A stretch of 64,000 bases of DNA, taken from the NCBI GenBank assembly GCA_033763455.1, contig JANRKO010000020.1, positions 32,001 through 96,000 on the forward strand, written 5' to 3'. The translations under genes and the position numbers were made by a program. Shown piece by piece: positions 6,371 through 36,412 of the stretch. A model generated the notes under the pieces. The model was not told the DNA's origin, searched no databases, and worked only from the letters and a program-made list of their open reading frames with translations. Origin of the DNA: Polyangiaceae bacterium. Lineage in GTDB: Bacteria > Myxococcota_A > Polyangia > Polyangiales > Polyangiaceae. Positions within the stretch are counted from its first letter, which is position 1. Every line of letters starts with the position of its first letter.

Positions 6371-6372
6371 GA

Positions 6373-8526: not shown

Positions 8527-8610
8527 GGTTGGTAGCTCTCCACTTCCCTACGGGCTCTCTGGGCCGTTTCGATAGGTCACTTGAGCAAGAGTGCGTGGGA
8601 TAATGTGCGT

Positions 8611-9669: not shown

Positions 9670-9753
9670 TGTGCCTGCCTCTCGCCGCACGTTGCAACGT
9701 CCACCCATTCACGGAATGACACGCGGTGAACTCTCCTTGCTTTGTTACTGCTT

Positions 9754-13570: not shown

Positions 13571-13580
13571 CTCGGTGCTC

Positions 13581-15254
13581 CTAGAAATCCAGCAGGCCAT
13601 CTTGGCCTTCATCGTCGTCAAACGGGATTAGCTTTGCGGCTGCGTTGCCTGTCGCCTTGCTGAGGGTTTGATTGCGCTCGGGTGCTCTTGGCTTGGGCGG
13701 CACACTCTTCGGAGGTGGCGAGCTTCTGCGAGTCCCCGTGCTGGCACGAAGTGGCACTCGTAGCGCAGACGGCTCACGCGCGGGGGCGTACCCCTCGCCA
13801 CTCAAAGAAAAGCCGGCAAGTAGCCGCGCGATATCCCCACTCTGACTAGTGAGCTCTTGGGCAGCTGCGGCCGACTCTTCCATCGCCGCTGCCGTCTGCT
13901 GGCTCGACCTAGACATCGATTCGACAGTCGCTCCTATCAGGGCCACACTCTGGCTTTGCTGCTCGGTGGCCAGCGCTATTTCCGCCATGACTTCCACCAC
14001 CGCACCCACGCGTGAAGTAATCTCTTGAAATCCGGCAACGGCCGCTGCATTCAACTTAACGCCGTCTTCGGCGCTCCGAACTGACTCATCGATCATTCGC
14101 GACGTATCCCGCGCTGCCTCGGCACTCCGCATAGCCAGAGCTCGCACCTCTTCGGCGACTACGGCAAATCCGCGCCCCGCGTCACCCGCCCGAGCCGCTT
14201 CCACTGCGGCATTGAGCGCAAGAAGATTCGTTTGGAACGCGATCTCATCGATGACACGAATAACCTTCGCCGTCTGGGTGGCGGTCGCTCGAATGCGCTC
14301 CGTAGCCAGCGACATTTTGGCGAGATCCGCGGCCCCTAGCACAGCGCTGTCGCGAGCACCCTCGGCCAGCCCTCGAGCTTGTTGAGCATTGGCCGCGTTT
14401 CGTTTGCCGCTTCCCATTACCTCCTGGAGGTTAGAGGTGATCTCTTCAAGCGCAGCGGCACCCTCGCTCGTCGCTTTGGCAACCACCTGCGCGCCCAAAT
14501 TGATTTCAGCAGCTGCCCCCGCAAGGCTCTGCCCGGTGAGGGCTACCTGACTGAGAACCTGATCGATGGTCTCTGCCGCTTGATTTAAGGCATCCATGAC
14601 CTCTCGATCCTCAGCGAAAGCTTCTCCCCGAACGGTGAAGTCACCCGTGGCCAGGGCTCGGGCAACTATGCCAAACTCGGCAAGAATTCGCGTCCGCTCA
14701 GCACGCGCGGACTCAACATTCGCAAGCTGTGCTGCCTCTCGCGACATACGTTGCGCAAAAGCAGCAACTATTGCAGCATCTGCTTGAAACACGCAAAAAA
14801 GAGCTTCCCGAAACCGAACCAGAGAGGCTCCTTTAACACCCGCGGCCGACGCGGTGGCAAGAAGCCCGTCCTTTAGATCAGTCTGTGCATCCAACAGCCA
14901 GAACCTGTGGTCGCAATCAGAGAGGCGCACCAGTTTCTCACGCGTAGCGAGGGCCCCATCACCAAACGTTCCAGCGAAAATCGAGTCAAGATACGCAGGC
15001 AATTGCCCCCGAGCTTCATCTTGTGCTTTCACGTCCGCCCCGAGCCTGCGGTCACGCTCTAAACGAGCCACCACGCTCCAGCTCAACTCCGCGAAACACC
15101 CCTGAACCGTCGCCCTATGAGTAGCAAGCTCATGCAGAGCCATCGGCAGGCCCGGATGAAACGCCAGAAGCGCAGCAACAGTCGAATCTGACACCCGCAC
15201 CTCCGGCAGCGCGGTGATAGCCTGGTGAGCTCGGAAGAAAAACCAATTAAACAC
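13581..15254 (-). CDS. Soluble MCP with N-terminal protoglobin-like domain and acidic C-terminal tail
   Basis: No clear TM; MA hairpin [20 protein letters not shown]; ends in a Pro-rich linker plus [15 protein letters not shown]. True start may be about 60 bp downstream. Confidence 0.88.
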
Positions 15255-15257
15255 AGC

Positions 15258-15752
15258 TCAATGCCCTTTCCCGCCGGCTACTCGTGCGGGCTCTTCGGTC
15301 GCAAGGATGCGATCTATATCGAGTATCAACCGCACCCGACCCTCTTGCTTGGCGACCCCCAACAGATATGAAGTATCTACGGACACTCCAAATTCAGGCG
15401 AAGGCGCGATCTCGCCAGGCGCCAGTGTCACCACCTCGGACACGCGGTCCACTAGAAGACCAACTTCCCGGCCACGAGACACGACGACCACAATGCACGT
15501 CTCTCGAGTTGCAGCAGCACGTGCCATCCCGAAGCGGCAGCGCAAGTCTATCACGCTAATAATCTTGCCACGCAAGTTAACCACACCGGCAACATATTTA
15601 GCCACCCGTGGCACCACCGTGATTGGCATACTCCCCACAATTTCCTGCACCGCTAGAATCCCAAGCGCGTACTCTTCCGCACCCAAGAAGAAGGATAGGT
15701 ATTGCTCTCCGTGAGGGGAGGAATTGTCGCTCGGTGCAAGTTCGGTGCTCAT
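15258..15752 (-). CDS. cheW: Chemotaxis coupling protein CheW
   Basis: YLSFFLGAEEYAL, GVVNLRGKIISVIDLR, GLLVDRV. Confidence 0.95.
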   Translation of the reverse strand: MSTELAPSDNSSPHGEQYLSFFLGAEEYALGILAVQEIVGSMPITVVPRVAKYVAGVVNLRGKIISVIDLRCRFGMARAAATRETCIVVVVSRGREVGLLVDRVSEVVTLAPGEIAPSPEFGVSVDTSYLLGVAKQEGRVRLILDIDRILATEEPARVAGGKGH

Positions 15753-15764
15753 GTTCGTCTCCCA

Positions 15765-17639
15765 CTAGCTAGCCAACGACAAGGGAACGTTGGCCTCATT
15801 TCGAGCGAGCAGCTTCAGCTCTGGTGGGTCTAAAATGAGCCCCACCCGGCCATCACCAAGAATCGCTCCGCCTGAGACGCCATCCACATGCCCCATCGTT
15901 TCCCCTAGGGCCTTTGCCACCACCTGTTGTTGACCTAAGATCTCATCCACCATCAGCGCGCAACGCCCATCAGAATCCGACAGAACCAGTAGGATTGCTT
16001 GGCTTGGATCCGTCTCCGCATCGGGCACATCGTACAAGCGATGCAAGCGGAACACTGGAATCAACTCCCCGCGCAACATCAGCATTTCTCCCCGCCCGGC
16101 AACGCTCGACAACATCGATGGTGTGGGCCGGAGGCTAAGCTGAATATTAACCATCGGCACCAGGTAGCGCTCACTCCCCACTCGCACCAACATACCCTCT
16201 GTAATCGCGAGAGTTAAGGGTACGAAAATGCTAAACGTGGTGCCACGTCCCAGGGTGGAGCTGATATCGATTCTCCCTTTCAGAGATTCGACACTGCGCC
16301 GCACCACATCCATCCCCACCCCACGCCCAGAGAGATCTGTAACCTGCTGTGCTGTGGAAAAACCAGGCGCAAAAATCAGGTCATAAACCGACGCATCGCT
16401 CATGCCGGCTCCGCTCTCAATCAGCCCCTTAGAAATCGCCTTGGCGATCAGTCGCTCACGGTCGAGCCCACCGCCATCATCCGAGAGCTCCACGACAACG
16501 TTGCCGCCGGCGTGAAACGCTCGCAGCAAAATCTCTCCGTCGCGGGGTTTGCCCGCCCGAGCGCGCTCTTCCGGCGTTTCAATCCCATGATCCACCGCGT
16601 TTCGAAGCATGTGCACCAGAGGATCCGCCAGAACGTCCACCATGTTGCGGTCGATATCTGTATCTTCCCCTTCAGTGCGCAGGCGAACCGCTTTGCCGCT
16701 TTTTACGGAAGCATCCCGCACCACACGGCCAAGCCGCTGGAAGGCCGCACGCAGAGGCACCATCCGGAGCGCCAGGCTGAGCTCTTGCAATTCGCGCACG
16801 ATTTTGCCGGCATGGTTCACCTTCTTCTGCAGCTCAACCTGCCCGGGGCGCCCGAGGGTTTCGTCCTGCGAGACCATGGATTGCGCAATCACCAGTTCGC
16901 CTACCATGTCGATCAAGCGATCAAGTCGATCCGTCCTCACCCGCACTGAAGCCTCCTGAGCCGCCGCTGCCTCTCGGCGCACGGGTGCTTCGGCGACGGG
17001 TGCTTCCGCAGTGCTAGATGCTGGCCTCTGAACTGCGGTCGGGGCTGGTTTGAGTACTCCTGGTTCCGCTACAGAGGACGCTGGCGCCACTACCCCGTGT
17101 GCCCTTTCTTGTAGCTCTGCCGTCAGCCCTGCGAGGCCCTGCGGAAGGTAAGCTGGCCCGCCGCTAGTCGCCGATTGCACGGCCTCCACCAGCGCCTTGA
17201 GGGCGTCCAGGGAACGGAGGGCGAGCTGTGGCACAACTCCCGTGAAGTTGAGCTCCCGATCGCGCACCTTGCTCATGAGCGACTCGGCCACGTGTGCAAA
17301 GTGCGCTATCACGTCGATGCCAAGCATTGCAGCGACGCCTTTCACGGTATGAAATGCTCGAAATACCGTCCCGACAGCTTCCATATCGTCGGGGTCCTGT
17401 TCCAAAGACAAGAGTGCCGTCTCGGCCTGGGCTAAGTACTCGCGTGATTCGGTAAGGAACTCGGAAACCAACTCCTGATCACGGTCAGCGGGCAGCACTA
17501 AGCGCTCTCGGAGCTCTTCCTTTGCCACCATGGCTTCCGAACTCTCGGACTCATCGAGCCAGTTTGGCTCCGAACCTGTGGTTACCCGAGGGGGGGGTTC
17601 GGGCGCCGTGGGTTTGGAAGGGGGTGTTTTTCTTGCCAC
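15765..17639 (-). CDS. cheA: Chemotaxis histidine kinase CheA (no P2 domain)
   Basis: P1 FRAFHTVKG, P3 VRVRTDRLDRLIDMVGELVI, P4 RNAVDHGIE/SGRGVGMDVV, single P5. Confidence 0.95.
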   Translation of the reverse strand: MARKTPPSKPTAPEPPPRVTTGSEPNWLDESESSEAMVAKEELRERLVLPADRDQELVSEFLTESREYLAQAETALLSLEQDPDDMEAVGTVFRAFHTVKGVAAMLGIDVIAHFAHVAESLMSKVRDRELNFTGVVPQLALRSLDALKALVEAVQSATSGGPAYLPQGLAGLTAELQERAHGVVAPASSVAEPGVLKPAPTAVQRPASSTAEAPVAEAPVRREAAAAQEASVRVRTDRLDRLIDMVGELVIAQSMVSQDETLGRPGQVELQKKVNHAGKIVRELQELSLALRMVPLRAAFQRLGRVVRDASVKSGKAVRLRTEGEDTDIDRNMVDVLADPLVHMLRNAVDHGIETPEERARAGKPRDGEILLRAFHAGGNVVVELSDDGGGLDRERLIAKAISKGLIESGAGMSDASVYDLIFAPGFSTAQQVTDLSGRGVGMDVVRRSVESLKGRIDISSTLGRGTTFSIFVPLTLAITEGMLVRVGSERYLVPMVNIQLSLRPTPSMLSSVAGRGEMLMLRGELIPVFRLHRLYDVPDAETDPSQAILLVLSDSDGRCALMVDEILGQQQVVAKALGETMGHVDGVSGGAILGDGRVGLILDPPELKLLARNEANVPLSLAS

Positions 17640-17669
17640 GCAAACCTCGAAAAAGGGGGTGTAGGGTTA

Positions 17670-17696
17670 CGAACGGCTGATCCGGACGTGTGTTAA
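17670..17696 (-). promoter_or_regulatory. Putative sigma28-like promoter
   Basis: Minus strand reads TTAA-N15-GCCGTTCG, 31 bp upstream of cheA. Confidence 0.45.
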
Positions 17697-17784
17697 GGTG
17701 CTGTTCTTTGTCTAAGTTCTGGCTTTCTCCGTGGCCAAGCCTTAACTCGAACCAAACACCAGCCGCTTACCTGGCAAGGCAAAC

Positions 17785-18189
17785 ATGGGGACAGCTAGAT
17801 TTGGCACTTTTCTGGTAGAACGCGGCGCGGTGACCGCGACGGATATCATGCAGGCTCTCGACGAGCAGTCGCGAAGGCGGCCCGTGCTGGGGCGCTTAGC
17901 GATCAAGCACGGATACCTAACGGTGGCGCAAGTGTTCCAGGTTTTGAACCAACAGGCGGATACCGGGCTCAAATTCGGCGAACAAGCCATGCGCCTCGGG
18001 TACCTCAAGGATGCAGACGTCTACAGCCTCCTCCAGCTACAGCGCAGTGAAACTCCGCGCATGAGCGATCTTCTAGTACAGCTTGGCAAGATCTCTGAGC
18101 CCGCTCTCAGAGCAGCGCGACTCGCGTACGAACGTGAAGTTCCCGAGGCAGACCAAGGATCCACCAGAGGCGACGAACTCCGATTCTAG
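17785..18189 (+). CDS. Small protein made of four MshEN-like (GSPII N-terminal) repeats
   Basis: RFGTFLVERGAVTATDIMQALDEQ / VLGRLAIKHGYLTVAQVFQVLNQQ / KFGEQAMRLGYLKDADVYSLLQLQ / RMSDLLVQLGKISEPALRAA. Confidence 0.75.
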   Translation: MGTARFGTFLVERGAVTATDIMQALDEQSRRRPVLGRLAIKHGYLTVAQVFQVLNQQADTGLKFGEQAMRLGYLKDADVYSLLQLQRSETPRMSDLLVQLGKISEPALRAARLAYEREVPEADQGSTRGDELRF

Positions 18190-18193
18190 AGGA

Positions 18194-18676
18194 TCATGCC
18201 GCGCCCTTCTTTGACAACACTCGAAATCGCAGGCTCGCGTCGACCTCGCCCTCCTCTAGTGCAACCCTGACGTTTGCGTCGCCACTGGGAAGCTCCTCCC
18301 CGAGGGCAAGGATGCGCGGCGACATCAAATCAAACACGGCTTGGCCGCCAGCGATGAGCGGCAAAACGTTACCGCACACGATGTTGGCAAGCTCACGCAA
18401 AGCATCTTGTTGAACCGTTTCGGACTCGACGTCATCATCCCCCAGCATTGCCGAAGCGATGGGAGCGAGCATACTTGGCGCCACCGAAATCCAGAGCGTT
18501 CCCTCAGCTGGGCCAATGAACTCCACTGCCACCGCAACGCTTCCCCTCGGCAAGTCGGCCAGAGCGACACCGTTCGTGCCCGGAGGCGGGACGCTCGGTT
18601 GAGGCAGCATGAAGCAAAGGCCTTCAAAAACCTGATAAACGGATTGCGTAAGAGCGGACGCCCAAGCCTGATTCAT
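18194..18676 (-). CDS. cheX: CheX-family phosphatase
   Basis: VEFIGPAEGTL, DALRELANIVCGN (ExxN), FDLMSP. Start trimmed to MNQAW. Confidence 0.85.
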   Translation of the reverse strand: MNQAWASALTQSVYQVFEGLCFMLPQPSVPPPGTNGVALADLPRGSVAVAVEFIGPAEGTLWISVAPSMLAPIASAMLGDDDVESETVQQDALRELANIVCGNVLPLIAGGQAVFDLMSPRILALGEELPSGDANVRVALEEGEVDASLRFRVLSKKGAA

Positions 18677-18680
18677 GTTG

Positions 18681-19061
18681 TTAGCCTCCCGTCGTGGCCG
18701 AAATAATAGCGTCCACGAGCACCTCGGGGCCAAAGGGCTTCCGTATGAACGTGGCCCCTAACTGGCGGAATAGTTCGATGCGGGCCTCACTACCCTCCGT
18801 GGACACCATAATGACGGGAAGCTCTGCCAACTTAGCATTAGCCCGAATGCGCCTTACCAATTCCTCCCCATTCATCCCGGGCATATTAACGTCAAAGAGC
18901 CCTAGATTAATGTCCGCTTCGCGCGTCAAGACGTCCAGCGCTTCTTGCCCTTCGCAGGCCTCGTGTACTCGCCCAATCGGCAAGTTACTCATCCCCAAGA
19001 CCCGGATGAGCATTTTGCGCATCACCGGGCTATCATCTACCACCAGCACCTGATAACTCAT
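18681..19061 (-). CDS. cheY: CheY-like response regulator
   Basis: VLVVDDSPVMRKM, FDVNMP, MVSTEG, RKPF. Start trimmed to MSYQ. Confidence 0.88.
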   Translation of the reverse strand: MSYQVLVVDDSPVMRKMLIRVLGMSNLPIGRVHEACEGQEALDVLTREADINLGLFDVNMPGMNGEELVRRIRANAKLAELPVIMVSTEGSEARIELFRQLGATFIRKPFGPEVLVDAIISATTGG

Positions 19062-19116
19062 CGTTCGTTTCCTTCCCAAAGAACTCGCGCCAAAGCTCCC
19101 ACTCTCCCCCGTACTG

Positions 19117-19602
19117 TCATCGGCGCCCAAGTTCGATGATGTCTTCCGTTGAGAGGATGGCGTCTATGTCGAGCAACAAACGAACCTTGCCGTTTGCCTT
19201 GCATATGCCCAAGAAATATTCAGCAGCCATGCCACTTCCGAGATCTACCATCGCTTCGGTATCTGCGGAGGTGACGTCCCTCACCTCGGAAACGGTGTCG
19301 ACAACGATGCCGAGCTCCATATCTGGCCGACGCACAACGATAATACACGTTTCGCGGCTCGCTTCGCGGGGTGGCATGGAGAACTTCGCACGCAAGTCGA
19401 TTACAGGAATAATCTTGCCGCGGAGATTAATCACACCTTGCATGAACGAAGGGGTTCCGGGCACGGGCGTAACCGGCATCATTCCGATAATCTCTCGCAC
19501 CTTGAGGATGGCGATGCCGTACTCCTCGGCTCCAAGAAAAAAGGAGAGATATTTGCCTTCCAGGCCGGGCTTCCGTGGGCTGGTGGACGCGTTTTCGGTC
19601 AT
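19117..19602 (-). CDS. cheW: Chemotaxis coupling protein CheW
   Basis: KYLSFFLGAEEYGI, GVINLRGKIIPVIDLR, GIVVDTVSEV. Confidence 0.95.
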   Translation of the reverse strand: MTENASTSPRKPGLEGKYLSFFLGAEEYGIAILKVREIIGMMPVTPVPGTPSFMQGVINLRGKIIPVIDLRAKFSMPPREASRETCIIVVRRPDMELGIVVDTVSEVRDVTSADTEAMVDLGSGMAAEYFLGICKANGKVRLLLDIDAILSTEDIIELGRR

Positions 19603-22518: not shown

Positions 22519-23874
22519 CTACGCTTTGACTTCTTCGTAGTGTTGCAGCTTGCGATACAGAGTGCGTCGATCGAATCCCAAGATCCGAGCCGCTTCCACT
22601 TTATTACCGCCAACGGCCTCCATCACGCGAAGGACATACCGCCGTTCGACCTCCTCCATGGGCACAAGCTCGGTCGGATCGAGCGCTGCCACCAATACGT
22701 CAGATGCTCTATATTCGGCGATTCGCTCAGGCAAATCGTCCGCTTGTATTTGCTCGGAGAGGGTTAGAACTACAGCGTGCTGGATGGCGTTCCGCAGCTC
22801 GCGCACGTTACCAGGCCACGGATAGGCTAGTAGGCGCCGTTCGGCATCGAGAGCGAAGCCAACGACGCGCTTGCTGCCCTGTTTGGAGAACTCCGCCGCA
22901 AATAGCTTTGCCAAAAGGAGGATATCCGTTCCACGCGCACGAAGCGGCGGCAACGTAACCTTCACTACATCCAGCCGGTAATAGAGGTCTTCGCGAAAGC
23001 GGCCTTCGGCCACTGCGCCAGCTAGATCTCGATTTGTCGCCGCCACCAATCGAAAGTCCACCGCCGTTTCCCCCGAGCCGCCGACGGCGCGGATCTTCCG
23101 CTCTTCCAGAGCTCGTAAAAGCTTGGGCTGGAGCCCAAGCGGCAGCTCACCGATTTCGTCTAGGAAGAGGGTTCCTCCGCTGGCTTGAACGAACAATCCT
23201 TCGCGGTCCGAGCGTGCATCTGTGAAGGCTCCCTTCTTGTGGCCGAACAGCTCACTTTCAAGCAACGCTTCGGGCAACGCCGAGCAATTCACGGCGATGA
23301 AGGGTCCCCGGCTCCGCGCTCCGGCGTCGTGCACGAAACGCGCGGCCAACTCCTTGCCGGTTCCACTCTCCCCTGTGACAAGGACGCTCGCTTCTGTTGG
23401 TGCCACGCGAACAAGCTTGTCTTTCATCGCCCGCATTGGAGTCGATTCACCCACAATGCCGTCGAACTCCCCACCACGGGTGATGACACGCTGCAGCCGA
23501 AGTACCTCTTTTTTGCTCTCACTTTCAGAAATCACACGCTGCAGCCGTAGAAGAGCTCCAGCCGGGGTAAAAGGTTTGCTCAAAAAGTCATCCGCACCTG
23601 CCTGAATCGCTTGAAACGCGGTTTCGAGGCTGTTCGCGGAGGTCATCACCACTATTGGCAGATGCGGCTGCTTCTGCCGTAGCCGTCGACAGAACTCCAA
23701 GCCGTTCATCTGCGGCATGAGCACGTCCGTCAACACTGCTGCCACCTGGCTGTCCTCAAGACGGCCAAGTGCAGCCTCGGCGTCGGTGAACACCTCCACC
23801 TCAAAGTGAGCTTTGAAGGTAAGCCTGAGGAGCTCTCCCAAGTCGCTGTCGTCGTCGACAATGAACACGCGCAT
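22519..23874 (-). CDS. Sigma54-dependent response regulator (REC-AAA+-Fis HTH), NtrC family
   Basis: TDVLMP REC, Walker [67 protein letters not shown] before ATG 23874. Confidence 0.95.
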
Positions 23875-24074
23875 ATCAGTCTTCTCCTTCATTACGGCAA
23901 CCAGTGCGTGAACAGAAGGCGTGAAACCCGAGCGGCGGGCCGGCAGTCCGGTGACCCTCCCGCCAAAGACCTGACACCTCTCCCGGAAGCGCGCACCGGA
24001 AACCTGTAGTGCCACGAACGCGCGAGCAGCTTAAATTAGGCATATTCCCGCTAAAGCTAGCTCTCGGCGCGTGC

Positions 24075-24090
24075 TGGCACCCGGCTTGCA
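24075..24090 (+). promoter_or_regulatory. Sigma54 promoter, consensus match
   Basis: TGGCACCCGGCTTGCA = TGGCAC-N5-TTGCA, oriented toward flagellin. Confidence 0.7.
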
Positions 24091-24402
24091 CAGCAGCCTA
24101 CCGAGTGACTTCTCTTGTACGCCCGCCAACGCCAAAAAAGAGCCGCGTAGTGCCGTGCCTTTGCTTCAGACACGACCCGAACGTGCACCCAATATTTCTT
24201 ACTCTCCCGCGAAACTCTCGATTAACTGACTCACCTGCACTCCTAACGTTAGCCTGTGATTCCAGCAAGGCTCGGCTCCCAAGGATGTCAACTCGCTGAC
24301 GAAACGCCGCCAGCAGAGTGACCGACTGGCCCCTTTTTGACCGACGAAGCCTCAATCAACCCCACCCAAACTCTCGAATAACCTGAGCACAAGGAAAACA
24401 TC

Positions 24403-25230
24403 ATGCCCCTATTCGTCCAGACGAACTTTGCCGCTCTTGCAGCGCAAAAGAACCTCAACATCAACCAAGGTCAGCTAAACGGTAGCTTCCAGAAACTATC
24501 GAGCGGCTACCGTATCAACTCCGCCGCCGATGACGCCGCGGGCCTTGCCATCAGCGAAGCCATGAAGTCGGACATTCGTTCCTACTCCGTGGCTGAACGA
24601 AACGCGATGGACGGTATCTCCATGGCACAAACGGCTGAAGGCGCCCTGGGTGAGATCCACCAAATTGTCGCTCGCATGCGCGAACTCGCGGTGCAATCTT
24701 CGAACGGCTCGATGAGCTCGCAAGATCGCGGGTTTCTTCAGACGGAGTTCGGTGAGCTTCAGGCTGAAATCGTGCGTATTCAGGGCGCAGCACAGTTCAA
24801 CGGTCAGGCGCTTCTCAACACCGCAGCTACAACCATCGACTTTCAGGTGGGCATCGGCACTACCGCGAGCGACCAGGTTTCCGTGACCTTCGGTGCCGTA
24901 GATCTGACCGCCATCACTGCTGGTATTTCTGTCACGGGCGTGGATGAAACCAACTCTTGGGCAGCCATCAATGCGCTCGACACCTCGATGGACGACATCT
25001 CCACCGCGCGCGCCCGTTTTGGTGCCGTAATGAACAGGCTTGAGGTTTCAGCGGCCACTGTGGCTACCATGCGCGTCAACACCTCCGCTGCCAACTCCCG
25101 CATTCGTGACGTCGACGTCGCAGCAGAAACGGCTTTCCTGAGCCGTAACCAGGTGCTCACTCAAACTGGCATTGCCGTCTTGGCCCAGGCCAACCAGCTT
25201 CCCCAATCCGTACTCCAGTTGCTTCGCTAA
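24403..25230 (+). CDS. fliC: Flagellin (short, 275 aa, essentially D0/D1 only)
   Basis: KLSSGYRINSAADDAAGLAIS, NAMDGISMAQTAEGAL, RMRELAVQS, RARFGAVMNRL, SRIRDVDVAAET, LAQANQLPQSVLQLL; AAGGA RBS. Confidence 0.97.
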   Translation: MPLFVQTNFAALAAQKNLNINQGQLNGSFQKLSSGYRINSAADDAAGLAISEAMKSDIRSYSVAERNAMDGISMAQTAEGALGEIHQIVARMRELAVQSSNGSMSSQDRGFLQTEFGELQAEIVRIQGAAQFNGQALLNTAATTIDFQVGIGTTASDQVSVTFGAVDLTAITAGISVTGVDETNSWAAINALDTSMDDISTARARFGAVMNRLEVSAATVATMRVNTSAANSRIRDVDVAAETAFLSRNQVLTQTGIAVLAQANQLPQSVLQLLR

Positions 25231-25259
25231 GCCCGCCTTTTGGCAACGTAAAGCGGGCT
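25230..25259 (+). terminator. Stem-loop after flagellin
   Basis: AGCCCGC(C)TTT...AAAGCGGGCT inverted repeat immediately after the stop codon. Confidence 0.55.
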
Positions 25260-25457: not shown

Positions 25458-25922
25458 ATGACCGCTGACGCTAAGCAGTGGCTTGAAGCAACCATAGCCA
25501 CCATGCGCGATTGCGCTGGGATGTTTGAGGCTGAGGGAGTCGAGGTGCTCGAGGTCTCGGGAGCACTCCCGGCCCACACCGGTGGCGCCTATATCTCCGT
25601 AGTTGGTAGCCAGCAGTCCGCGGAGCTCGGAGTTGTTTGCTCGCCAGATGCGCAACAGGCCCTTGGCCAAAAGTTCCTGGGTGCCGATGCCCCTCTTGCT
25701 CCCGACGAAGTCGCGGATTCGATGCGCGAGATGGCCAACATCGTTGCTGGGGGTCTGAAAACCATGATGGTCCAATACGATCCTACCCTCGCCTTGGGGC
25801 TGCCGATGTTTGTGGACGGAGTTCACCTCGGGTCGAACACGCACACGCACGTCGCGAAGGTGTCGCTCGCAGGCCAAGAAGTTTACTTGATCGTGATCCT
25901 GCGGTCCTCTCACGCCCGCTGA
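25458..25922 (+). CDS. cheX: CheX-family phosphatase (paralog of 35935-36402)
   Basis: EVADSMREMANIVAGGLK...LALGLPMFV. Confidence 0.85.
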   Translation: MTADAKQWLEATIATMRDCAGMFEAEGVEVLEVSGALPAHTGGAYISVVGSQQSAELGVVCSPDAQQALGQKFLGADAPLAPDEVADSMREMANIVAGGLKTMMVQYDPTLALGLPMFVDGVHLGSNTHTHVAKVSLAGQEVYLIVILRSSHAR

Positions 25923-26705: not shown

Positions 26706-29045
26706 ATGACGGAACTTGATGACGTCGTTAAAGAATTCTTGGTTGAAAGCCATGAGAACCTGAGTGCGCTGGAGCAGGATCTGGTTCGGCTGGAGCAAAC
26801 CCCAGACGACTCAAAGGAAGCCCTCGCTCGGATATTCCGCACGGTGCACACAGTCAAAGGCACCTGCGGGTTTCTAGGATTCTCCAAACTTGAGAGCGTC
26901 ACCCACGTCGGCGAGAACCTGTTGAGCAAGCTGCGTGACGGCGTTCTCCACGTTACAGGGGACATAACCTCCGCACTTTTGGCCTTAGTGGACGCCATCC
27001 GGGAGATGCTAACCTCGGTCGAAACGACCGGAGAGGAGGGCCCGGGGGACTACAGTGCTCTCATCGCCGAGCTCACCCGCCTGCTTGAACCCAAGCAGGC
27101 TCCCCCAAAACCACAACTTCGAGCCGCTGATGCATCCGTTGAGGTGGAGCGAGCGGAAGCCCCAGTGGCTCCCATCGGGGAGCTCTTGGTCCAAGCGGGC
27201 CGCGTGACCCGCGAAGAGGTCAAAGAGGTGCTTGAGCTCCAGCAGGCGGGCGACCCCCGGCACGTAGGCGAAATCTTAGTGGAGCAAGGCAGAATTGTTC
27301 CCGAAGACGTGGTGGACGCGCTCAACGTCCAGAAGAAGGCCAAGCCGCAAACGGGAGGCCTTGCCGACACAACTATTCGCGTCGAAGTGAGCCAACTGGA
27401 TAAGCTCATGAACCTCGTGGGCGAGCTTGTTTTGGCTCGAAATCAGATCCTACAGTTCATCGGCCCGGACACCGACGCAGTACTGCAAACCACCACTCAG
27501 CGACTGAACCTCGTTACCACTGAGCTGCAGGAAGGCGTGATGAAGACGCGCATGCAGCCCATCGATACCGTGTGGTCCAAGTTCCCAAGAGTGATTCGGG
27601 ACTTAGCGCGTTCCTGCAGGAAGCGTGTACGCGTTGAGATGGAAGGGCGAGATACCGAGCTCGATAAGACGATTATCGAGGCGATCAAAGATCCACTCAC
27701 ACACATCGTTCGCAATGCGGTCGACCACGGCGTGGAATCTCCCGAAGAGCGAGAAGCAGCAGGAAAGCCACCGGAAGGCTTCTTAAGGCTCCAAGCATTT
27801 CATGAAGGCGGACACGTAAACATAGAGATATCGGACGATGGTGGCGGCATCGATCCGGAGAAACTAAAGCGCAAAGCGCAGGAAAAAGGCCTGGTATCAG
27901 CCGCTGCTTTGGCACGCATGTCCGAGCGTGAGCTTCTTTCATTAATTTTCATGCCCGGCTTTTCGACGGCCAAGGAAGTCACCAACGTCTCCGGCCGCGG
28001 AGTGGGCATGGATGTGGTGAAGACCAACATCGAACGCATTGGCGGTACCGTGGATATTAGTAGCCGCATCGGTGCCGGAACAACCATCCATATCAAGATC
28101 CCCCTCACCTTAGCGATCATTCCCGCACTTGTGGTGGCTTCCGGTCACGAGCGTTTTGCGATTCCGCAGGTGAGCCTTTTGGAGCTCGTGCGCATGGATC
28201 TGGAAAAGCCCAACGGGGGCATTGAAGACGTGAGCGGTGTGCCCGTGTATCGATTGCGCGGGAACCTGCTTCCAATAGTTGACCTTGGCTTCGAGCTTTT
28301 CGGAAAGAAGTCCAACATCGGCGAAAATGGCGTAGCCACCATTGTTGTTCTGCAAGCCGATGAGCGGCAGTTTGGGCTTTTGGTCGAAGAGATCCACGAC
28401 ACCGAGGAAATCGTCGTAAAACCTCTAGGCAAGCAGCTCAAGAATCTCTCCGCATTCTCAGGTGCGACCATCATGGGAGACGGCCGCGTAGCCCTAATCT
28501 TAGACGTTTTGGGGCTGGCTCAAATGGCGCGTGTCGTGGGTACAACGCGAGATCGTTCGCTCGGCGATCGTGGCAAACATGCGCAAGAGTCAGCCGAGAA
28601 GCCGGAATCGTTGCTGCTGGTACGTGTGGGTACACGCCAGACTCTGGCTATCCCGCTCAGGCTCGTGGCACGCCTCGAAGAAGTTGCGTTAGATTCGGTC
28701 GAAAGGGCTGGTGCCAGCAACGTCGTTCAGTATCGCGGGCAGATCATGCCCCTCATCCACCTGAGCGAGGTTGTTTCTGAGATTGTAGAAGCGGATCTGG
28801 TTGCGCCCGAAGTATTGTCCGTAGTGGTATTCGATCACCTGGGGCAAAGCGTGGGCCTCGTGGTTTCGGCCATCGTAGATATCGTGGATGAGGCCGTAAA
28901 GCGCCACTCAACCGCCAAACGCCCAGGAATTTTGGGCTCCGGCGTGGTGCAAGGGCAGGTTGTTGAGTTGGTTGATCTTCCTGGGTTGATGCAGCGCGTA
29001 TTGCCCCGCGCCGTTTCGGACGCCCCCGCCGCACTCGTAGCTTGA
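26706..29045 (+). CDS. cheA: CheA with MshEN-like insert at the P2 position and two C-terminal CheW-like domains
   Basis: FRTVHTVKGTCGF, IRVEVSQLDKLMNLVGELVL, RNAVDHG, SGRGVGMDVV, P5 plus an extra CheW domain (AIPLRLVARLEE..VQYRGQIMPL). Confidence 0.95.
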   Translation: MTELDDVVKEFLVESHENLSALEQDLVRLEQTPDDSKEALARIFRTVHTVKGTCGFLGFSKLESVTHVGENLLSKLRDGVLHVTGDITSALLALVDAIREMLTSVETTGEEGPGDYSALIAELTRLLEPKQAPPKPQLRAADASVEVERAEAPVAPIGELLVQAGRVTREEVKEVLELQQAGDPRHVGEILVEQGRIVPEDVVDALNVQKKAKPQTGGLADTTIRVEVSQLDKLMNLVGELVLARNQILQFIGPDTDAVLQTTTQRLNLVTTELQEGVMKTRMQPIDTVWSKFPRVIRDLARSCRKRVRVEMEGRDTELDKTIIEAIKDPLTHIVRNAVDHGVESPEEREAAGKPPEGFLRLQAFHEGGHVNIEISDDGGGIDPEKLKRKAQEKGLVSAAALARMSERELLSLIFMPGFSTAKEVTNVSGRGVGMDVVKTNIERIGGTVDISSRIGAGTTIHIKIPLTLAIIPALVVASGHERFAIPQVSLLELVRMDLEKPNGGIEDVSGVPVYRLRGNLLPIVDLGFELFGKKSNIGENGVATIVVLQADERQFGLLVEEIHDTEEIVVKPLGKQLKNLSAFSGATIMGDGRVALILDVLGLAQMARVVGTTRDRSLGDRGKHAQESAEKPESLLLVRVGTRQTLAIPLRLVARLEEVALDSVERAGASNVVQYRGQIMPLIHLSEVVSEIVEADLVAPEVLSVVVFDHLGQSVGLVVSAIVDIVDEAVKRHSTAKRPGILGSGVVQGQVVELVDLPGLMQRVLPRAVSDAPAALVA

Positions 29046-29057
29046 AAAGGGAACTCT

Positions 29058-29507
29058 ATGCTGACTGAGAACCAATACTGCACGTTCACATTGGGCCCAT
29101 TCATGTTCGGAGTCGGTGTGCGTGAGGTGCAAGAGGTCATTCGCTACCAAGAGATGACACGTGTGCCCTTGGCCCCACGCACGGTGGGAGGCCTTATCAA
29201 TCTACGCGGGCAGATAGTGGTAGCCGTAGATTTGCGCGAGCGATTGGGCTTACCCGCGCGCGATTCAACGGTGCTTCCTATGAATGTGGTCGTGTGCTCT
29301 GACGACGGTGCCGTGAGCCTTTTGGTCGACGAAATCGGCGACGTTATCGAGGTCAGCCCGTCCGAATTTGAAGCCGCACCCGACACACTTACGGGAACAG
29401 CTCGAGATCTAATAACCGGCGTCTACAAACTTGAGGGAAAGCTCCTGCTCGTTCTCGACGTCAACAAGACCGCCACCACTGAACTTGAAATCGCAAAAGT
29501 TGCCTAG
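29058..29507 (+). CDS. cheW: Chemotaxis coupling protein CheW
   Basis: [32 protein letters not shown]. Confidence 0.95.
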
Positions 29508-29526
29508 ATTTTTGAGGGAAATATTC

Positions 29527-32500
29527 ATGACTACTACATCTGCCGCCACCTCTGAAGACGTGAACCTTTATGAGCTCCTAGGAGGTGAAGATATTATCCG
29601 AGCCGCCGTGGACGCATTTTACGAACGCGTGCTCGCTGACGAAGAACTTGCACCCTACTTCGAAGACGCAAATATGAAGGGGCTAAAGAAGAAGCAAACG
29701 ATCTTCTTGTCGCAGGCTTTGGGCGGCCCCCAAAAGTATCGCTGGCGCGACATGCGAACGGCTCACGCAGGAATGAACATCACAGCCGAGCATTTCGATC
29801 GAGTTGCTGAACACCTGGTGGCAACACTCACCGGCTTGGGCGTGAACATGCCCACCGTAAACAAGATCCTAGCGGTGGTAGCGCCGCTTAAAAACGACAT
29901 CGTGGACGACCGCAGCAGCGGCAAACAACCAATCTCAGAGGAATCTCGCATGGCAAGCTTATCGCAAATCCCCCCCCATCAGAACGGCTCCGCTCGCAGC
30001 TCCGCCCCGAAGGCCCCGCTTGGGGCCCTCGCGCAGGATAGCGCAATTTTGGCAGAGCTGCTCGAAGCCCTGCACACTACAACTGCCTTTCAAGACGTGG
30101 TCACCACCGCGCTGGAGCTTGTGTGTGAACGCATGGGCTGGAGCTACGCCGCGTACCTATCCGTCGATACCGAACAAGACGTGATGCGTTTTGTAGCCGA
30201 CTACGGGCAAACGGACGCCGCCCTTTCCCGTCTAGTGCGAGGTGCACAGTGGCGGCGTGGCGAAGGGATCGCCGGCCAGGCCTGGGACGATGGTAAACAA
30301 CTCGTGGCGGATGCGGATGAGGACTTTGGAAATCCGCGCTTGGCAGCAGCCGCGGAACGCGCACGAATGGCCACCAGTCTCGCGTTGCCCCTCTCGCTAG
30401 GGAACCGTACGGCAGGCGTATTCCTTTTCTACTCAACCACTGAGCAGAACGTGAACTCCCAGGCGCAGAAGGTGTTCCGAAGCGTGGCCACATTAGTGGG
30501 TGCTGCCGTCGAACGCGCTGACACTGGACGCATTCGATCCATGTTGGATAAGGCCCCCACCAACGTCATTTACGCGGATAAAGACTTCATCATCCGCTAC
30601 GCTAATGCGGCTTCACTGAAGACCCTCCGGTCCCTGGAAACGTATCTCCCCTTCAAGGCCGACGAACTTGTTGGAAAATCAATCGACGTTTTTCACAAGC
30701 ATCCAGAACACCAACGCAAGTTACTTTCGGATCCGAAGAACCTCCCCCACCAAGCCCTCATCCAGCTTGGTCCGGAGACACTAGATCTTTTGGTGAGCGC
30801 AATTACGGACGACTCTGGCCGCTACCTTGGGCCCATGTTGACCTGGCAGGTTGTTACCCAGAAGGTGAAAACCGAACGCGAAATGGCGCGCATCTTCAAC
30901 ATGATGGAAAACGCACCCATCAATGTGATCTATGCCGACAAGAATTTCAACATTCAATACATGAACCCGGCATCGCTCCGCACGCTAAAGAGCATTGAGC
31001 AATATCTGCCTGTGCGTGCTGATGAAGTTGTCGGAAAGTCAATTGACGTTTTCCACAAGCACCCAGAGCACCAGCGCACCTTGCTCTCTGACCCAAAGAA
31101 GCTACCTCATCAGGCCATCATCAACGTAGGTCCAGAGAAGCTCGACCTGCTAGTAAGTGCCATTTACGACTCCAAGGGGGAATACCTGGGCCCGATGGTC
31201 ACCTGGCAGGTGGTAACGCAAAAGCTCAAGACCGAGCGTGAAATGGCGCGAATCCACAACATGATGGAAAACGCACCCATCAACGTCATTTACGCCGATC
31301 GCGAAGGCACCATTCAGTACATGAATCCTGCCTCTTTGAAGACGCTCCGCTCCCTCGAGGCACACCTACCGGTGCGCGCGGACGAAATCATCGGAAAATC
31401 GATCGACATCTTCCACAAGAAGCCGGAGCACCAGCGCGGTATCGTTGCCAACCCAAAGAACCTCCCCCACGAGGCCACCATTTCCGTCGGCCCAGAGAAG
31501 CTGCGACTGCTCGTGAGTGCGATTCTCGACCAAAAGGGTGAATTCCTCGGGCCAATGCTCACTTGGGAAGTAGTTACCGAAAAACTCAAGCTTGAGGCCA
31601 AGCAGAAGGAAACCGCAGTGCTATCTGCCGGCATGTCAAAGCTGATGGAAGCCCTGGGCAATGCACTCACTCCGAGCGAGTGCCTGCGTGTCGCCCTCGA
31701 CACCATGCGCGAAGGCTTCAACTGGACCTACGGAGCGCTGTGGCCTCTGGACACCGAGAGCAAAACGCTCAAGTTCATGCAGGATTCTGGCGAAATTGCG
31801 CCGGAGTTCCGGCGTTCATCTGAAACAGCGACGTTTCGTTTGGGGCAAGGCCTCGGTGGTCGCGCCTGGCAAAGCATGGACATGATAGCTGTGGATGATC
31901 TCTCCCAGCTCACCGATTGCCCCCGCGTAGGCGTGGCGGGTCGCATTGGTATCAAAACAGGAGCCGCCTTTCCCATCATTGTGGACGGTAAGCTCTGGGG
32001 CGTGATCGATTTCATCTCGACCGAACCCATCCCGATCTCTCCCGAGCGCCAGGAAACATTGCGGAACGCAGGACGCGCTCTGTCTGCGGCGTTCGAGCGT
32101 TTGCTCGGTGTCGCCAAGCAGAAGGAAGCCGCAGTGCTGTCCGCGGGCATGTCCAAGCTCATGGAAGCCCTGGGCAACGCGCCTAGTTCCAATGATTGCC
32201 TACGCGTTGCACTCGACACCATGCGCGAAGGTTTCAACTGGACCTACGGAGCCCTCTGGCCGCTCGACGCTGAAACCAAAACCCTCAAATTCATGCAGGA
32301 CTCTGGCAACATTGCACCCGAATTCCGGCGTTCATCTGAAACCGCTACATTCCGCTCAGGGCAAGGCCTCGGTGGTCGCGCCTGGCAGAGCATGGACATG
32401 ATAGCTGTGGATGATCTCTCCCAGCTCACCGATTGCCCCCGCGTAGGCGTGGCGGGTCGCATTGGTATCAAAACAGGAGCCGCCTTTCCTATCATTGTGG

Positions 32501-33600
32501 AAGGCAAGCTCTGGGGCGTGATCGACTTTGTCTCCCTTGAACCCATCGCCATCTCCCCGGAGCGCCAGGAGACGCTGCGAAACGGCGGGCGCGCCCTTTC
32601 GGCAGCGTTCGAACGACTGCTTGGAGTGGAGCGCGAGCAGCGGCATGCCGCCGAGCTAAAAGACAAGGTCGATCAAATGTTGGCAGTGGTGAACGCCGCA
32701 GCTGCAGGGGACCTCACACGCGAGGTTACGGTGAACGGTAAGGATGCGATCGGTCAGATGGGTGAAGGATTGAGCCGCTTCCTCACCGATCTTCGTCAAA
32801 GTATTGGTGACATCGCATTGAACGGAAAATCGCTCAACGGCTCCTCCGAGGAACTGCTCGGCATGAGCCAGACCATGGCTTCAAACTCTGAGGAAACCTC
32901 GGCACAAGCCAACGTCGTTTCAGCAGCGGCCGAAGAGGTGAGCAAGAACGTGCAAACGGTGGCAGCGGGCGTGGAGGAAATGAGCGCCAGCATTAAGGAG
33001 ATTGCCAAAAATGCAAGCGACGCCGCCAGAGTGGCCATCGAGGGTGTCAAGGCCGCCGAGACCACCAACGCAACGGTTGCCAAGCTCGGCGAAAGCAGCG
33101 CGGAGGTCGGTAAAGTTATCAAAGTCATTACCTCCATCGCCCAGCAGACCAACCTACTCGCGCTCAACGCGACGATCGAAGCAGCGCGCGCCGGTGAAGC
33201 GGGCAAGGGCTTCGCGGTGGTGGCCAATGAAGTGAAGGAGCTCGCCAAAGAAACGGCTAAGGCGACGGAAGACATCAGTCAGAAGATTGAAGCCATTCAG
33301 GGTGATACGCACATGGCCGTCGAAGCTATCGCAAGAATCAGCGAGATTATCCGCCAAATTAACGATATTCAGGCCACAATAGCAGCCGCTGTAGAAGAGC
33401 AAACCGCCACCACCAACGAAATCTCCCGCAACGTGAGTGAAGCTGCGCGCGGCAGCTCCGAGATCGCGGACAACATCACCAGTGTGGCGCAGGCCGCACA
33501 GGAAACCACGACCGTGGCTACCAAGACGCAAGAGGCTGCCAATGCCTTGGGCAGAATGGCGGCCGACCTCACCAAGTTAGTGGCTCGCTTCAAAAACTAA
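29527..33600 (+). CDS. Giant soluble chemoreceptor: truncated hemoglobin-GAF-3xPAS-2xGAF-HAMP-MA
   Basis: LYELLGG..FYERV..YF..LGGP..AH (group I 2/2 globin); three 120-aa PAS repeats; two 172-aa GAF repeats; [20 protein letters not shown]; no TM. GAGGGA RBS before ATG 29527. Confidence 0.93.
30541..31596 (+). repeat. Intragenic triple repeat (360-nt period) encoding PAS domains
   Basis: Units start near 30541, 30901 and 31261; each has NVIYAD..VGKSIDxFHKxPEHQR..GPMxTW. Confidence 0.92.
31597..32628 (+). repeat. Intragenic tandem duplication (516-nt period) encoding GAF domains
   Basis: GCCAAGCAGAAGGAA at 31597 and 32113; long near-identical nucleotide stretches. Confidence 0.95.
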
Positions 33601-33629
33601 CCCCCGGCTCCCTCAGGTTCGGAGGCCCC

Positions 33630-34019
33630 ATGAAAGCCATTGTAGTAGATGATTCCGGAACGATGCGACGCATCTTGAAACGGATGCTAATTGAACTCGG
33701 CTTCGAGGTGAGCGAAGCCGAGGACGGGGTGGCGGCACTCGAATGGTTCAAGCTCAACGGCGCCATTGATTTGGCACTTTTGGATTGGAACATGCCGGAA
33801 ATGAGCGGTTACGATCTATTGCGCATGGTGCGCTCGAAGCATGAATTCGACAGCATGCGCATCATGATGGTGACCACCGAAAGTGAGATGGAAAAGATGT
33901 CCCAAGCACTCGACGCGGGGGCCGACGAATATGTAATGAAGCCGTTTACGAAGGACGTCATTACCGATAAGCTAAGCCTCTTGGGATTTGAGGGCAGCGT
34001 TCATGGAGCTGCCCCTTGA
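33630..34019 (+). CDS. cheY: Chemotaxis response regulator CheY
   Basis: AIVVDDS, LLDWNMP, MVTTE, YVMKPF. Confidence 0.93.
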   Translation: MKAIVVDDSGTMRRILKRMLIELGFEVSEAEDGVAALEWFKLNGAIDLALLDWNMPEMSGYDLLRMVRSKHEFDSMRIMMVTTESEMEKMSQALDAGADEYVMKPFTKDVITDKLSLLGFEGSVHGAAP

Positions 34020-35122
34020 AGAAAATCCGCGTCCTTATCGTTGACGACGCCGTTGTCATCCGAAAGATCCTTTCGGATGTGCTATCGGCGGAGCCCGATA
34101 TGGACGTGGTGGGCACGGCGGCCAATGGCGCCCTCGGGCTCAAGAAGATTGAACAGCTCTCGCCCGACGTAGTGCTGTTGGACGTGGAGATGCCAGAGAT
34201 GAACGGCATCGAAACCATCAGGGCGATTCGACCGCTCTACCCGAGGTTGCCCGTCATCATGTTCAGCACGCTCACGAACGCGGGAGCGGCCACCACCATT
34301 GAGGCCCTGCTACTTGGTGCTACGGATTACGCCACCAAGCCTGCCAACGTTGGCAGCACCACCAACGTGGTGAAGGAGGTTCAAACCACCCTCCTGCCAA
34401 AGATCCGCAATGCCTGTGGGCAATTGCTCCCAGCGCAAGCTACCGCCGTTCGCCAGAGTGCGCCGCCTCGCCTCGCCAAACCCATCCCCGCTTCCAACAA
34501 GCGTCCAGAAATACTGGTCATCGGCACTTCCACCGGTGGGCCCAATGCGCTCGCTGAAGTCCTGAAAGATATTCCCGCGTCATTTCCGGTGCCGGTGTTG
34601 ATCGTTCAACACATGCCCCCGCTCTTCACACACTTTCTGGCCGAGCGACTGAACAAGAACTGCCCGTTGCGCATCCGCGAGGCAGTGGATGATACCCCGC
34701 TCCTACCGGGGGAGTGCTGGATAGCCCGGGGTGATTACCACATGGACTTGAAGCGAACGGCGAGCGACGTGCGGCTCGCCTTAAACCAAGCCCCCCCCGA
34801 GAATTCCTGCCGTCCCGCGGTAGACGTAACTTTTCGCGCAGTGGCCCGCCTTTACGGCGGAGCAAGCTTAGCCGTTGTTCTCACCGGAATGGGGCAAGAT
34901 GGCCTGCGCGGAGGGAGAGCGATCCGAAGCGCAGGCGGGCGAGTTCTGGCTCAAGATCAAGCTTCTTCTGTGGTGTGGGGAATGCCGGGAGCAGTGATCG
35001 AAGCGGGGATCGCAGAGGCCGGGCTGCCGCTTTCCCAAGTTGCCGCGGCCATCTTGGAACGGTTTGGTTTGAGCAAGCGCACGGCTATTCAAGCTAAGGA
35101 GCGGGCCGTTGGAAACAGTTGA
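34016..35122 (+). CDS. cheB: Chemotaxis methylesterase CheB
   Basis: REC LDVEMP; GTSTGG, QHMP, LTGMGQDG, VVWGMP. Confidence 0.95.
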   Translation: MKKIRVLIVDDAVVIRKILSDVLSAEPDMDVVGTAANGALGLKKIEQLSPDVVLLDVEMPEMNGIETIRAIRPLYPRLPVIMFSTLTNAGAATTIEALLLGATDYATKPANVGSTTNVVKEVQTTLLPKIRNACGQLLPAQATAVRQSAPPRLAKPIPASNKRPEILVIGTSTGGPNALAEVLKDIPASFPVPVLIVQHMPPLFTHFLAERLNKNCPLRIREAVDDTPLLPGECWIARGDYHMDLKRTASDVRLALNQAPPENSCRPAVDVTFRAVARLYGGASLAVVLTGMGQDGLRGGRAIRSAGGRVLAQDQASSVVWGMPGAVIEAGIAEAGLPLSQVAAAILERFGLSKRTAIQAKERAVGNS

Positions 35123-35918
35123 TTTCCAGTTCCTTCAGAGGTTCATGCACAGCCACGCGGCGATCGTGATCGACGAGGGCAAGCAGTACCTGGTGGAGAA
35201 CCGACTTCAGCCAGTGGCGAAAGCGGCAGGCCTAGCCGATCTGCATGGCCTCGTTGCGCGCCTCAAAGGTGAACCATTCGGGCACCTCCACCGCGACGTG
35301 CTCGACGCGATGACCACCAACGAAACCTCGTTTTTTCGCGACACCAAGCTCTACGAAGCGCTGGAAAGGGAGATCCTACCTGAGCTTCTTACGTACACTG
35401 CGGGCCGCAAGCTAACCATCTGGTGCGCTGCGTGCTCCACGGGCCAAGAACCCTATACATTGAGCATTATCTTCAAGGAAAAGCTCAGAGTTGGCCCCGA
35501 GCGCGTCGAAATCATCGCTACCGATATCTGTGAACGAGCGCTCGCGGCCGCCACGCTTGGGGAATACAGCCAGATGGACGTGAATCGCGGCTTGCCAGCA
35601 CCTCTTTTGCTCCGCAATTTTCAGCAGGCAGGGCGCACCTTCCGCATTAACGATGAGGTCAAGAAATACGTAAAATTCCGCAAATTGAACCTTGCTCAAG
35701 CCTGGGAAGGCCTCGGTTCACTCGATCTCGTCCTCATCCGCAACGTGCTAATTTACTTCAACATCGACACCAAGCGGCAAATCTTGAACAGGGTAAAGAG
35801 CCTCATGAAGCCCCACGCCTATCTTATTCTAGGTGCCGCGGAGACCACGCTCAATATCGATGATTCCTACGAACGAATCGTCAAAAAAGACGCAACTATC
35901 TACCGTCCTGTACGTTAA
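35109..35918 (+). CDS. cheR: Chemotaxis methyltransferase CheR
   Basis: MTTNETSFFRD, IWCAACSTGQEPY, RNVLIYF. Confidence 0.95.
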   Translation: METVDFQFLQRFMHSHAAIVIDEGKQYLVENRLQPVAKAAGLADLHGLVARLKGEPFGHLHRDVLDAMTTNETSFFRDTKLYEALEREILPELLTYTAGRKLTIWCAACSTGQEPYTLSIIFKEKLRVGPERVEIIATDICERALAAATLGEYSQMDVNRGLPAPLLLRNFQQAGRTFRINDEVKKYVKFRKLNLAQAWEGLGSLDLVLIRNVLIYFNIDTKRQILNRVKSLMKPHAYLILGAAETTLNIDDSYERIVKKDATIYRPVR

Positions 35919-35934
35919 CGCGAAGAGCAACTCA

Positions 35935-36402: not shown

Positions 36403-36412
36403 AGCCGTAAGA

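Follow-up and report, generated by a model that had tools for sequence, protein, structure and literature searches.

A second flagellin gene between two chemotaxis clusters, and the flagellar gene cluster of the same genome, in an uncultured relative of the myxobacteria

Introduction

Flagellated relatives of the gliding myxobacteria include Anaeromyxobacter, of the class Myxococcia, and Persicimonas caeni, whose group is placed in Myxococcota. A flagellar cluster of 55.7 kb in the genome of Anaeromyxobacter dehalogenans 2CP-C contains over 30 genes besides motA, motB and fliC, and swimming was seen in Anaeromyxobacter strain K (Thomas et al. 2008, PMC2330069). In that paper, the 2CP-C cluster is argued to be ancestral and to have been lost in gliding myxobacteria, and model myxobacteria are stated to be without flagella. 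Persicimonas caeni YN101 (Bradymonadales) has flagella visible by electron microscopy as well as flagellar genes, and is described as moving by 'flagella and gliding' (2020, PMC7188933). For the class Polyangia, flagellar genes have been published, in one sentence, for Myxococcota metagenome-assembled genomes (MAGs) from Zodletone spring (Murphy et al. 2021, bioRxiv 10.1101/2021.07.06.451402). Apart from the works cited here, a literature search turned up nothing on flagella in Polyangiaceae-type genomes.

The locus described here lies in a 64-kb window, meaning the whole stretch of DNA analysed (contig C20:32001-96000), from a binned genome of 6.56 Mb in 92 contigs, with an estimated completeness of 93.7% and an estimated contamination of 2.84%. 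Within it, a gene for a short flagellin (FliC2) sits between two chemotaxis (che) clusters, both of which encode a CheA. An earlier reading of the window from its letters and open reading frames (the sequence-only reading) treated a flagellin in a myxobacterium as a surprise; this was put too strongly, as flagella have been published for Myxococcota and FliG is encoded in 86/201 genomes of the host-phylum sample. Because flagellated Myxococcota are already in print, the host adds one more case to a phenomenon that is known. What is new is the breadth of flagellar genes over the host's family and phylum, with a congruent phylogeny, which extends the 2008 ancestral-flagellum argument for Anaeromyxobacter and does not overturn it; the idea that the window flagellin is out of place is thereby corrected. 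The finding matters mainly for the evolution of myxobacterial motility and for the enrichment and culture of such organisms, and reveals no new mechanism.

Compared with these systems, the host shows both likenesses and differences. As in Anaeromyxobacter 2CP-C, two cheA genes are associated with its flagellar genes. In the 2CP-C genome as described in PMC2330069, however, the che genes lie inside the flagellar cluster, whereas one flagellin copy of the host is found away from its flagellar cluster, on another contig, flanked on both sides by che genes. FlgA, FliJ and a FliK-like gene, which that paper reports as missing in 2CP-C, are present in the host cluster. Strain 2CP-C is cultured and belongs to another class, while the host lineage is uncultured. 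Persicimonas caeni, according to its description, is a cultured marine saltern isolate of a different class. The Zodletone MAGs come from an anoxic habitat and belong to another order and family than the host, and the single sentence on them holds no analysis of flagellins, their regulation or their inheritance.

The flagellin gene and its product

The FliC2 reading frame (Table 1) is uninterrupted, with 275 codons from an ATG start, and its product matches both flagellin domains: Flagellin_N (PF00669) over residues 5-141 (profile positions 1-137 of 139, 6.6e-41, 140.1 bits against a cut-off of 26.6) and Flagellin_C (PF00700) over residues 190-274 (profile positions 2-86 of 86, 1.3e-23, 83.6 bits against a cut-off of 23). 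The sequence AAGGA at 24391-24395 stands 7 nt ahead of the ATG. The intact 275-aa flagellin and the ribosome-binding site of the sequence-only reading are therefore both confirmed. Among the NCBIfam flagellin models, none of the best 25 of 26 matches reaches its curated cut-off for FliC2; the best, NF009444, gives 268.5 bits against 332, and the LafA model NF038071 gives 229.1 bits against 365.

FliC2 aligns over its full length with the 265-286-aa flagellins of many solved filaments. In PDB 6t17 (276 aa), residues 5-274 of FliC2 align to residues 3-275 of the chain (E 3.8e-53), and this flagellin, like those of 9hpz (270 aa) and 9lrz (281 aa), is of the same length class and has no outer domains. 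A FliC2 filament lacking outer domains is thus a reasonable prediction. The sheath that the sequence-only reading offered as an alternative to a thin filament finds no support.

Table 1. Features of the flagellin locus and of the flagellar genes on other contigs (window positions unless a contig is named)
Feature	Position	Strand	Basis or remark
Che cluster 1: CheB, hybrid kinase, CheB, CheD, CheR, two MCPs, CheW, CheA, CheX, CheY	5330..19130	-	
CheA of che cluster 1	15765-17639	-	
Divergent NtrC-type response regulator / sigma-54 activator	22519..24015	-	Response_reg + Sigma54_activat + HTH_8; GAFTDA loop
Sigma-54 (-24/-12) promoter motif TGGCACCCGGCTTGCA	24075..24090	+	0-mismatch match, 328 nt upstream of flagellin
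Long leader, ~300 nt given a start at the sigma-54 site	24091..24402	+	sequence, 3-orthologue alignment
Conserved leader block GTCAA-C/G-TC-G/A-CTGACGA...GTGAC	24280-24330		~100 nt before ATG; alignment of 3 orthologous upstream regions
Flagellin, second copy (FliC2), 275 aa, D0/D1 core only	24403..25230	+	Pfam matches, full-length alignments
G+C-rich hairpin, 7 bp	25230..25259	+	directly 3' of flagellin stop codon; fold
CheX-like phosphatase 3' of flagellin	25458..25922	+	Pfam CheX 8.4e-08
Che cluster 2: CheA, CheW, globin-GAF-PAS MCP, CheY, CheB, CheR, CheX	26706..36402	+	
CheA of che cluster 2	26706-29045	+	
Full flagellar cluster	C73, about 38.8-72.8 kb		genome-wide profile search
FlgJ-like glucosaminidase, FliS, FliD, 277-aa flagellin (FliC1), CsrA, FlgL, FlgK, FlgM	C73		
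FlgI, FlgH, FlgA, FlgG, sigma-54 activator	C73 (activator, 51547-52824)		
FlgB, FlgC, FliE, FliF, FliG, FliH, FliI, FliJ, FliK-like, FlgD, FlgE	C73		
FliM-like, FliN, FliO, FliP, FliQ, FliR, FlhB, FlhA, FlhF, FliA, FlgF, FliW	C73		
MotA	C31:24264-25097		TIGR03818; MotA_N + MotA_ExbB domains
MotB	C31, ORF next to MotA		MotB_plug + OmpA domains

The terminator placed after the gene by the sequence-only reading is confirmed only in part, because the G+C-rich hairpin that follows the stop codon has no U-run and a consensus scan of 23900-25600 found 0 intrinsic terminators; the fold is also no better than that of shuffled sequences (z -0.29). The same scan found 0 sigma-70 promoters. Alignment of the three orthologous upstream regions revealed a conserved block in the leader, which is neither a sigma-28 nor a sigma-70 consensus site.

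Flagellar genes elsewhere in the genome

Apart from the flagellin itself, the 55 ORFs scanned in the window include no member of a flagellar structural or motor family, in agreement with the earlier statement that hook, basal-body and motor genes are missing from it. This emptiness, together with the remark in PMC2330069 on model myxobacteria, is what speaks for a repurposed orphan flagellin, that is, a lone protein, for instance secreted or adhesive, in a gliding and non-flagellated myxobacterium. A genome-wide search for flg, fli, flh, mot and fliA genes, as the sequence-only reading had proposed, gave a different picture: contig C73 carries a full flagellar cluster, including the export gate and FliA, and contig C31 carries MotA and MotB (Table 1). 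The C73 genes cover the MS, P and L rings, the rod, the hook, the export gate and the ATPase, and include a flagellin (FliC1) that is 70% identical to FliC2.

FliS (TIGR00208) scores 94 bits against a cut-off of 53.75, FlgK (TIGR02492) 333.5 against 170.75, FlgL (TIGR02550) 175.6 against 127.2, FlhA 814 against 772, FliN 105 against 84 and MotA 321.1 against 303.8; FliG_C is matched at 1.9e-34, and FliD matches NF005955 at 9.9e-58, under that model's cut-off. The one gap in the set concerns FliM: the Pfam family PF02154 has no match in the genome, and the FliM candidate is a 291-aa ORF on C73 with the FliM/N C-terminal domain only.

The orphan reading is therefore rejected, and we consider it very improbable: the genome that encodes FliC2 also encodes a flagellar cluster, MotAB, FliS, FliD, FliA and FlgM, its 70%-identical paralogue lies inside that cluster, and the orthologues of FliC2 in congeners are 89% identical to it. 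With high probability, FliC2 is instead a second structural flagellin, paralogous to FliC1, in a bacterium that builds a Gram-negative flagellum of the ordinary type.

Two further genes were noted during this search. Directly beside fliS-fliD-fliC, a SAM-methyltransferase fused to TPR repeats is encoded at C73:39746-40969 (-), and may be a modifying enzyme associated with flagellin or the flagellum. Another FHIPEP (FlhA/SctV-type) gene, outside the flagellar cluster at C19:53326-55164 (-), probably belongs to a non-flagellar type III system like the one that PMC12248157 reports for Myxococcus.

Promoter and regulation of FliC2

The window was scanned with the sigma-54 consensus TGGCAC-N5-TTGC, with GG-N10-GC spacing. 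The motif TGGCACCCGGCTTGCA upstream of FliC2, in the same orientation, is the sole 0-mismatch match in the 64 kb, while matches with up to 2 mismatches are about as frequent as chance predicts (41, with 39.4 expected). In the two congeners with FliC2 orthologues, G008 and G007, a perfect motif TGGCACCGGGCTTGCA precedes the ATG by 250 nt and 241 nt, respectively, thus in 2/2 loci examined, and RpoN is encoded on contig C19 (419 bits against 277). As a sequence motif, the sigma-54 promoter named in the sequence-only reading is confirmed. The sigma-28 pattern TAAA-N15-GCCGATAA, allowing up to 3 mismatches, was matched 30 times against 28.8 expected, and at no position in 24015-24403. A scan of metagenome contigs yielded flagellin relatives of at most 63% identity and no orthologous loci for promoter comparison.

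In Caulobacter and Campylobacter, the NtrC-type activators FlbD and FlgR, respectively, drive sigma-54-dependent flagellin genes. The arrangement found here is similar, with a flagellin behind a -24/-12 promoter and a response-regulator activator encoded nearby, the translation of which reads GAFTDA, just as the sequence-only reading had it. It differs in that the activator falls under the cut-offs of both curated models that it matches, NF050807 (324 against 750) and NF049963 (313 against 750), and in that the adjacency is not kept in G008. A role for this activator at the FliC2 promoter is a guess, because the gene is not upstream of the flagellin in that congener; a second sigma-54 activator of the genome is encoded inside the flagellar cluster on C73.

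If FliC2 is a structural flagellin of an ordinary flagellum, the following course of events can be proposed. The sigma-54 promoter would transcribe the gene with a long leader, helped by an NtrC-type activator that may be the divergent neighbour. In Bacillus, FliW and CsrA control flagellin translation at the ribosome site, and by analogy the host's FliW and CsrA probably tune FliC2 translation at its AAGGA. FliS would then bind the protein for export through the FlhA/FlhB/FliPQR gate. Beyond FlgK and FlgL, and under the FliD cap, FliC2 would polymerise into a filament that is predicted to lack outer domains and probably contains FliC1 as well, and one or both of the flanking che pathways would steer the motor.

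Integrity of the assembly

A bin of 92 contigs with some estimated contamination invites the suspicion that a different organism, one that is normally flagellated, contributed the flagellin or the flagellar contig, the more so as the public contigs that could confirm the locus are short (the longest piece on the region measures 1486 nt), no independent one spans the whole locus, and none joins the flagellin to housekeeping genes. Several observations oppose this. The flagellin shares contig C20 with tig-clpP-clpX-lon, at 57-63 kb of the window, the genes that place the host. The contigs bearing the flagellin (C20), the flagellar cluster (C73), MotAB (C31) and the ribosomal proteins (C70) have GC contents of 0.583-0.594, and their tetranucleotide use correlates with the genome mean, taken over 65 contigs of at least 20 kb, at no less than 0.992; GC is even along the window. 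An 882-nt public contig spans 23946-24827 and is identical to the window there, although its run, X1, may be the source sample. Contigs from two other studies (X3 and X4) match parts of the flagellin gene, likewise with 0 differences, and the comparison with public metagenome contigs flagged no joint from 23351 to 30822. Flagellin is, moreover, found in 3/3 congeners and 15/24 genomes of the family. The bin is coherent, and an origin of the flagellin locus by misassembly or misbinning is hardly credible.

The same comparison disclosed one difference, at 26471, just upstream of cheA, where 14 bases of the window are missing in contigs of three runs from at least 2 studies; this is a small strain-level intergenic indel.

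Placement of the host

Names attached to the closest records point to the myxobacteria. Among the 120 Tig relatives listed, all 5 that bear organism names are a Myxococcales, Polyangiaceae or Sorangiineae bacterium (63-66% identity), and MAGs of Myxococcales and Polyangiaceae are among the named relatives of the flagellin, at 64%. A MAG titled 'uncultured delta proteobacterium' encodes a ClpX with 92% identity to the host's. In the window itself, the flanking protein at 142-2259 (-) combines TIGR02232 cysteine-rich repeats (1.1e-78) with a fibro-slime domain (2.8e-18), so the Myxococcus-type repeats reported there were correctly recognised.

Two trees were built by a quick LG+G4 analysis from named records together with genomes from the family, order, class and phylum to which the host belongs. 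The first combines Tig, ClpP, ClpX and Lon, with 54/61 rows kept after 7 rows with fewer than 3 markers were dropped. For the second, the ribosomal-protein region was chosen as marker because rpoB was not found: TIGR02013 has no match in the assembly, although 14/14 control genomes were matched, and with the bin 93.7% complete an assembly gap is the likely reason. This second tree uses 21 ORFs of the region, named by gene order with L2 alone located by a model, in 41 rows and 3120 columns. In both trees, Hyalangium (Myxococcia) and the SLRQ01 MAG ('Deltaproteobacteria bacterium') are the nearest named lineage to the host and stand inside the diversity sampled from its phylum, sharing with it a 24-row clade in the first (SH-aLRT 98) and a 23-row clade in the second (SH-aLRT 99). 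Named Desulfobacterota, Bdellovibrionota, Binatota, Nitrospirota, Pseudomonadota and Bacillota fall outside the host clade of the ribosomal-protein tree. The Lon/ClpX/Tig phylogeny suggested by the sequence-only reading thus leads to the same neighbours as the ribosomal proteins.

If the host belonged outside Myxococcota, in another commonly flagellated phylum, the finding would be trivial. Some results lean that way: a host-phylum clade that leaves out Hyalangium was not rejected by an AU test (p 0.254; the group was defined after the tree had been seen), FliG occurs in 38-43% of the host-phylum sample, and searches of that sample (200 genomes, with counts given per 201) found 0/201 genomes resembling Hyalangium Tig at E <=1e-90, an empty result that weighs little, and a best match of 72% for Hyalangium ClpX, a weak test because the query was that genome's second ClpX copy. 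The ClpX of Desulfobacterium N47 likewise had 0/201 matches at E <=1e-195, which again weighs little. Against such a placement stand the 5/5 myxobacterial names among the listed Tig relatives, the Myxococcales and Polyangiaceae names among the flagellin relatives, the position of Hyalangium and SLRQ01 in both trees with Desulfobacterota, Bdellovibrionota, Binatota, Nitrospirota and Pseudomonadota outside, and the TIGR02232 repeats in the window. A host outside Myxococcota is, on balance, unlikely, though of the explanations that compete with ours it deserves the most weight. By the labels of its relatives the host is a myxobacterium, and its family is uncultured, with named members labelled Polyangiaceae or Myxococcales.

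One feature of these data stands by itself: the host-phylum sample has no close counterpart of Hyalangium Tig or of its second ClpX, yet Hyalangium nests in or beside the sample in the trees.

Distribution and descent of flagellar genes

Flagellin_N was found in 22/41 genomes of the relatives search, the host included: in 3/3 congeners, 15/24 genomes of the family and 6/16 from other families of the order. In one congener, G006, only the C73-type flagellin and FlgL were found. Over the host-phylum sample, FliG_C is matched in 86/201 genomes, 76 of them with E <=6e-24; most of the ten weak matches fall in proteins some 600 aa long, which are probably not FliG. By family, FliG_C is in places all-or-none (6/6, 0/18, 0/11). 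FlhA was detected at E <=1e-150 in 28/46 chosen genomes; at that threshold it was found neither in Hyalangium nor in G001, the nearest named relative. The latter genome, of 9.6 Mb, has ClpX and ribosomal proteins 92% and 78% identical, respectively, to those of the host, and has neither a Flagellin_N nor an FlhA match. Possession is therefore patchy even inside the family, and flagellar genes have been lost between close genera of it.

Such patchiness, with 15/24 of the family possessing flagellin and G001 without it, could also reflect a recent horizontal gain of the flagellar system from another phylum, in which case the genes would be silent on myxobacterial ancestry. FlhA identity to the host drops as relatives become more distant, in line with inheritance, from 63-68% within the family through 49-52% at the level of order and class to 44-49% in the rest of the phylum; the last range is no higher than to named outgroups (41-45%), which would be compatible with a gain. 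The FlhA tree (28 rows) argues otherwise, since it follows the ribosomal-protein tree: the family is recovered with support of 100, the class with 99 and the same two deep groups with 97 and 95, and every named outgroup lies outside. In its composition C73 matches the rest of the bin, and an ancestral flagellum was likewise the reading given for Anaeromyxobacter by Thomas et al. (PMC2330069). A recent gain is accordingly improbable, and the agreement of the trees points to a flagellum inherited vertically rather than newly acquired, with repeated loss in many relatives.

At the level of genes, a swimming myxobacterial lineage, one of the two possibilities raised from the window alone, is upheld by the flagellar regulon and MotAB of the host and by close relatives labelled Polyangiaceae or Myxococcales; gene content suggests that uncultured relatives of the Polyangiaceae swim by means of a standard flagellum. 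The FliG counts and the congruence of the FlhA tree with the species tree suggest that flagella are common across the host's phylum. A wider proposal, which we hold tentatively and at slightly less than even odds, is that the flagellum is ancestral to the phylum that holds the host (Myxococcota or its sister) and has been kept by about two-fifths of the species-level lineages, including a large uncultured family labelled Polyangiaceae, so that the gliding, fruiting model myxobacteria would be the exception, produced by repeated loss. The same proposal would have the host genus move a second, sigma-54-driven flagellin beside dedicated che pathways, an arrangement that may mark a switch between swimming and surface life.

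Chemotaxis genes beside the flagellin

Profile matches recovered every component of the two CheA systems that the sequence-only reading had listed (CheY, CheX and CheD), and CheR, CheB, CheW and MCPs in addition. CheX is encoded three times in the window, once downstream of the flagellin (Table 1). This flagellin-CheX order is kept in G008, in which the CheX is 70% identical.

The MCP of che cluster 2 (29431-33600, +) is 1389 aa long, combines a bacterial globin domain at its N-terminus with several PAS domains and three GAF stretches, and looks like a globin-coupled sensor of unusual elaboration. Directly after the same cluster follow a weakly matched GNAT acetyltransferase (36374-37045, +) and a gene of the histone-deacetylase family (37049-37990, +), which might form an acetylation pair tied to chemotaxis signalling.
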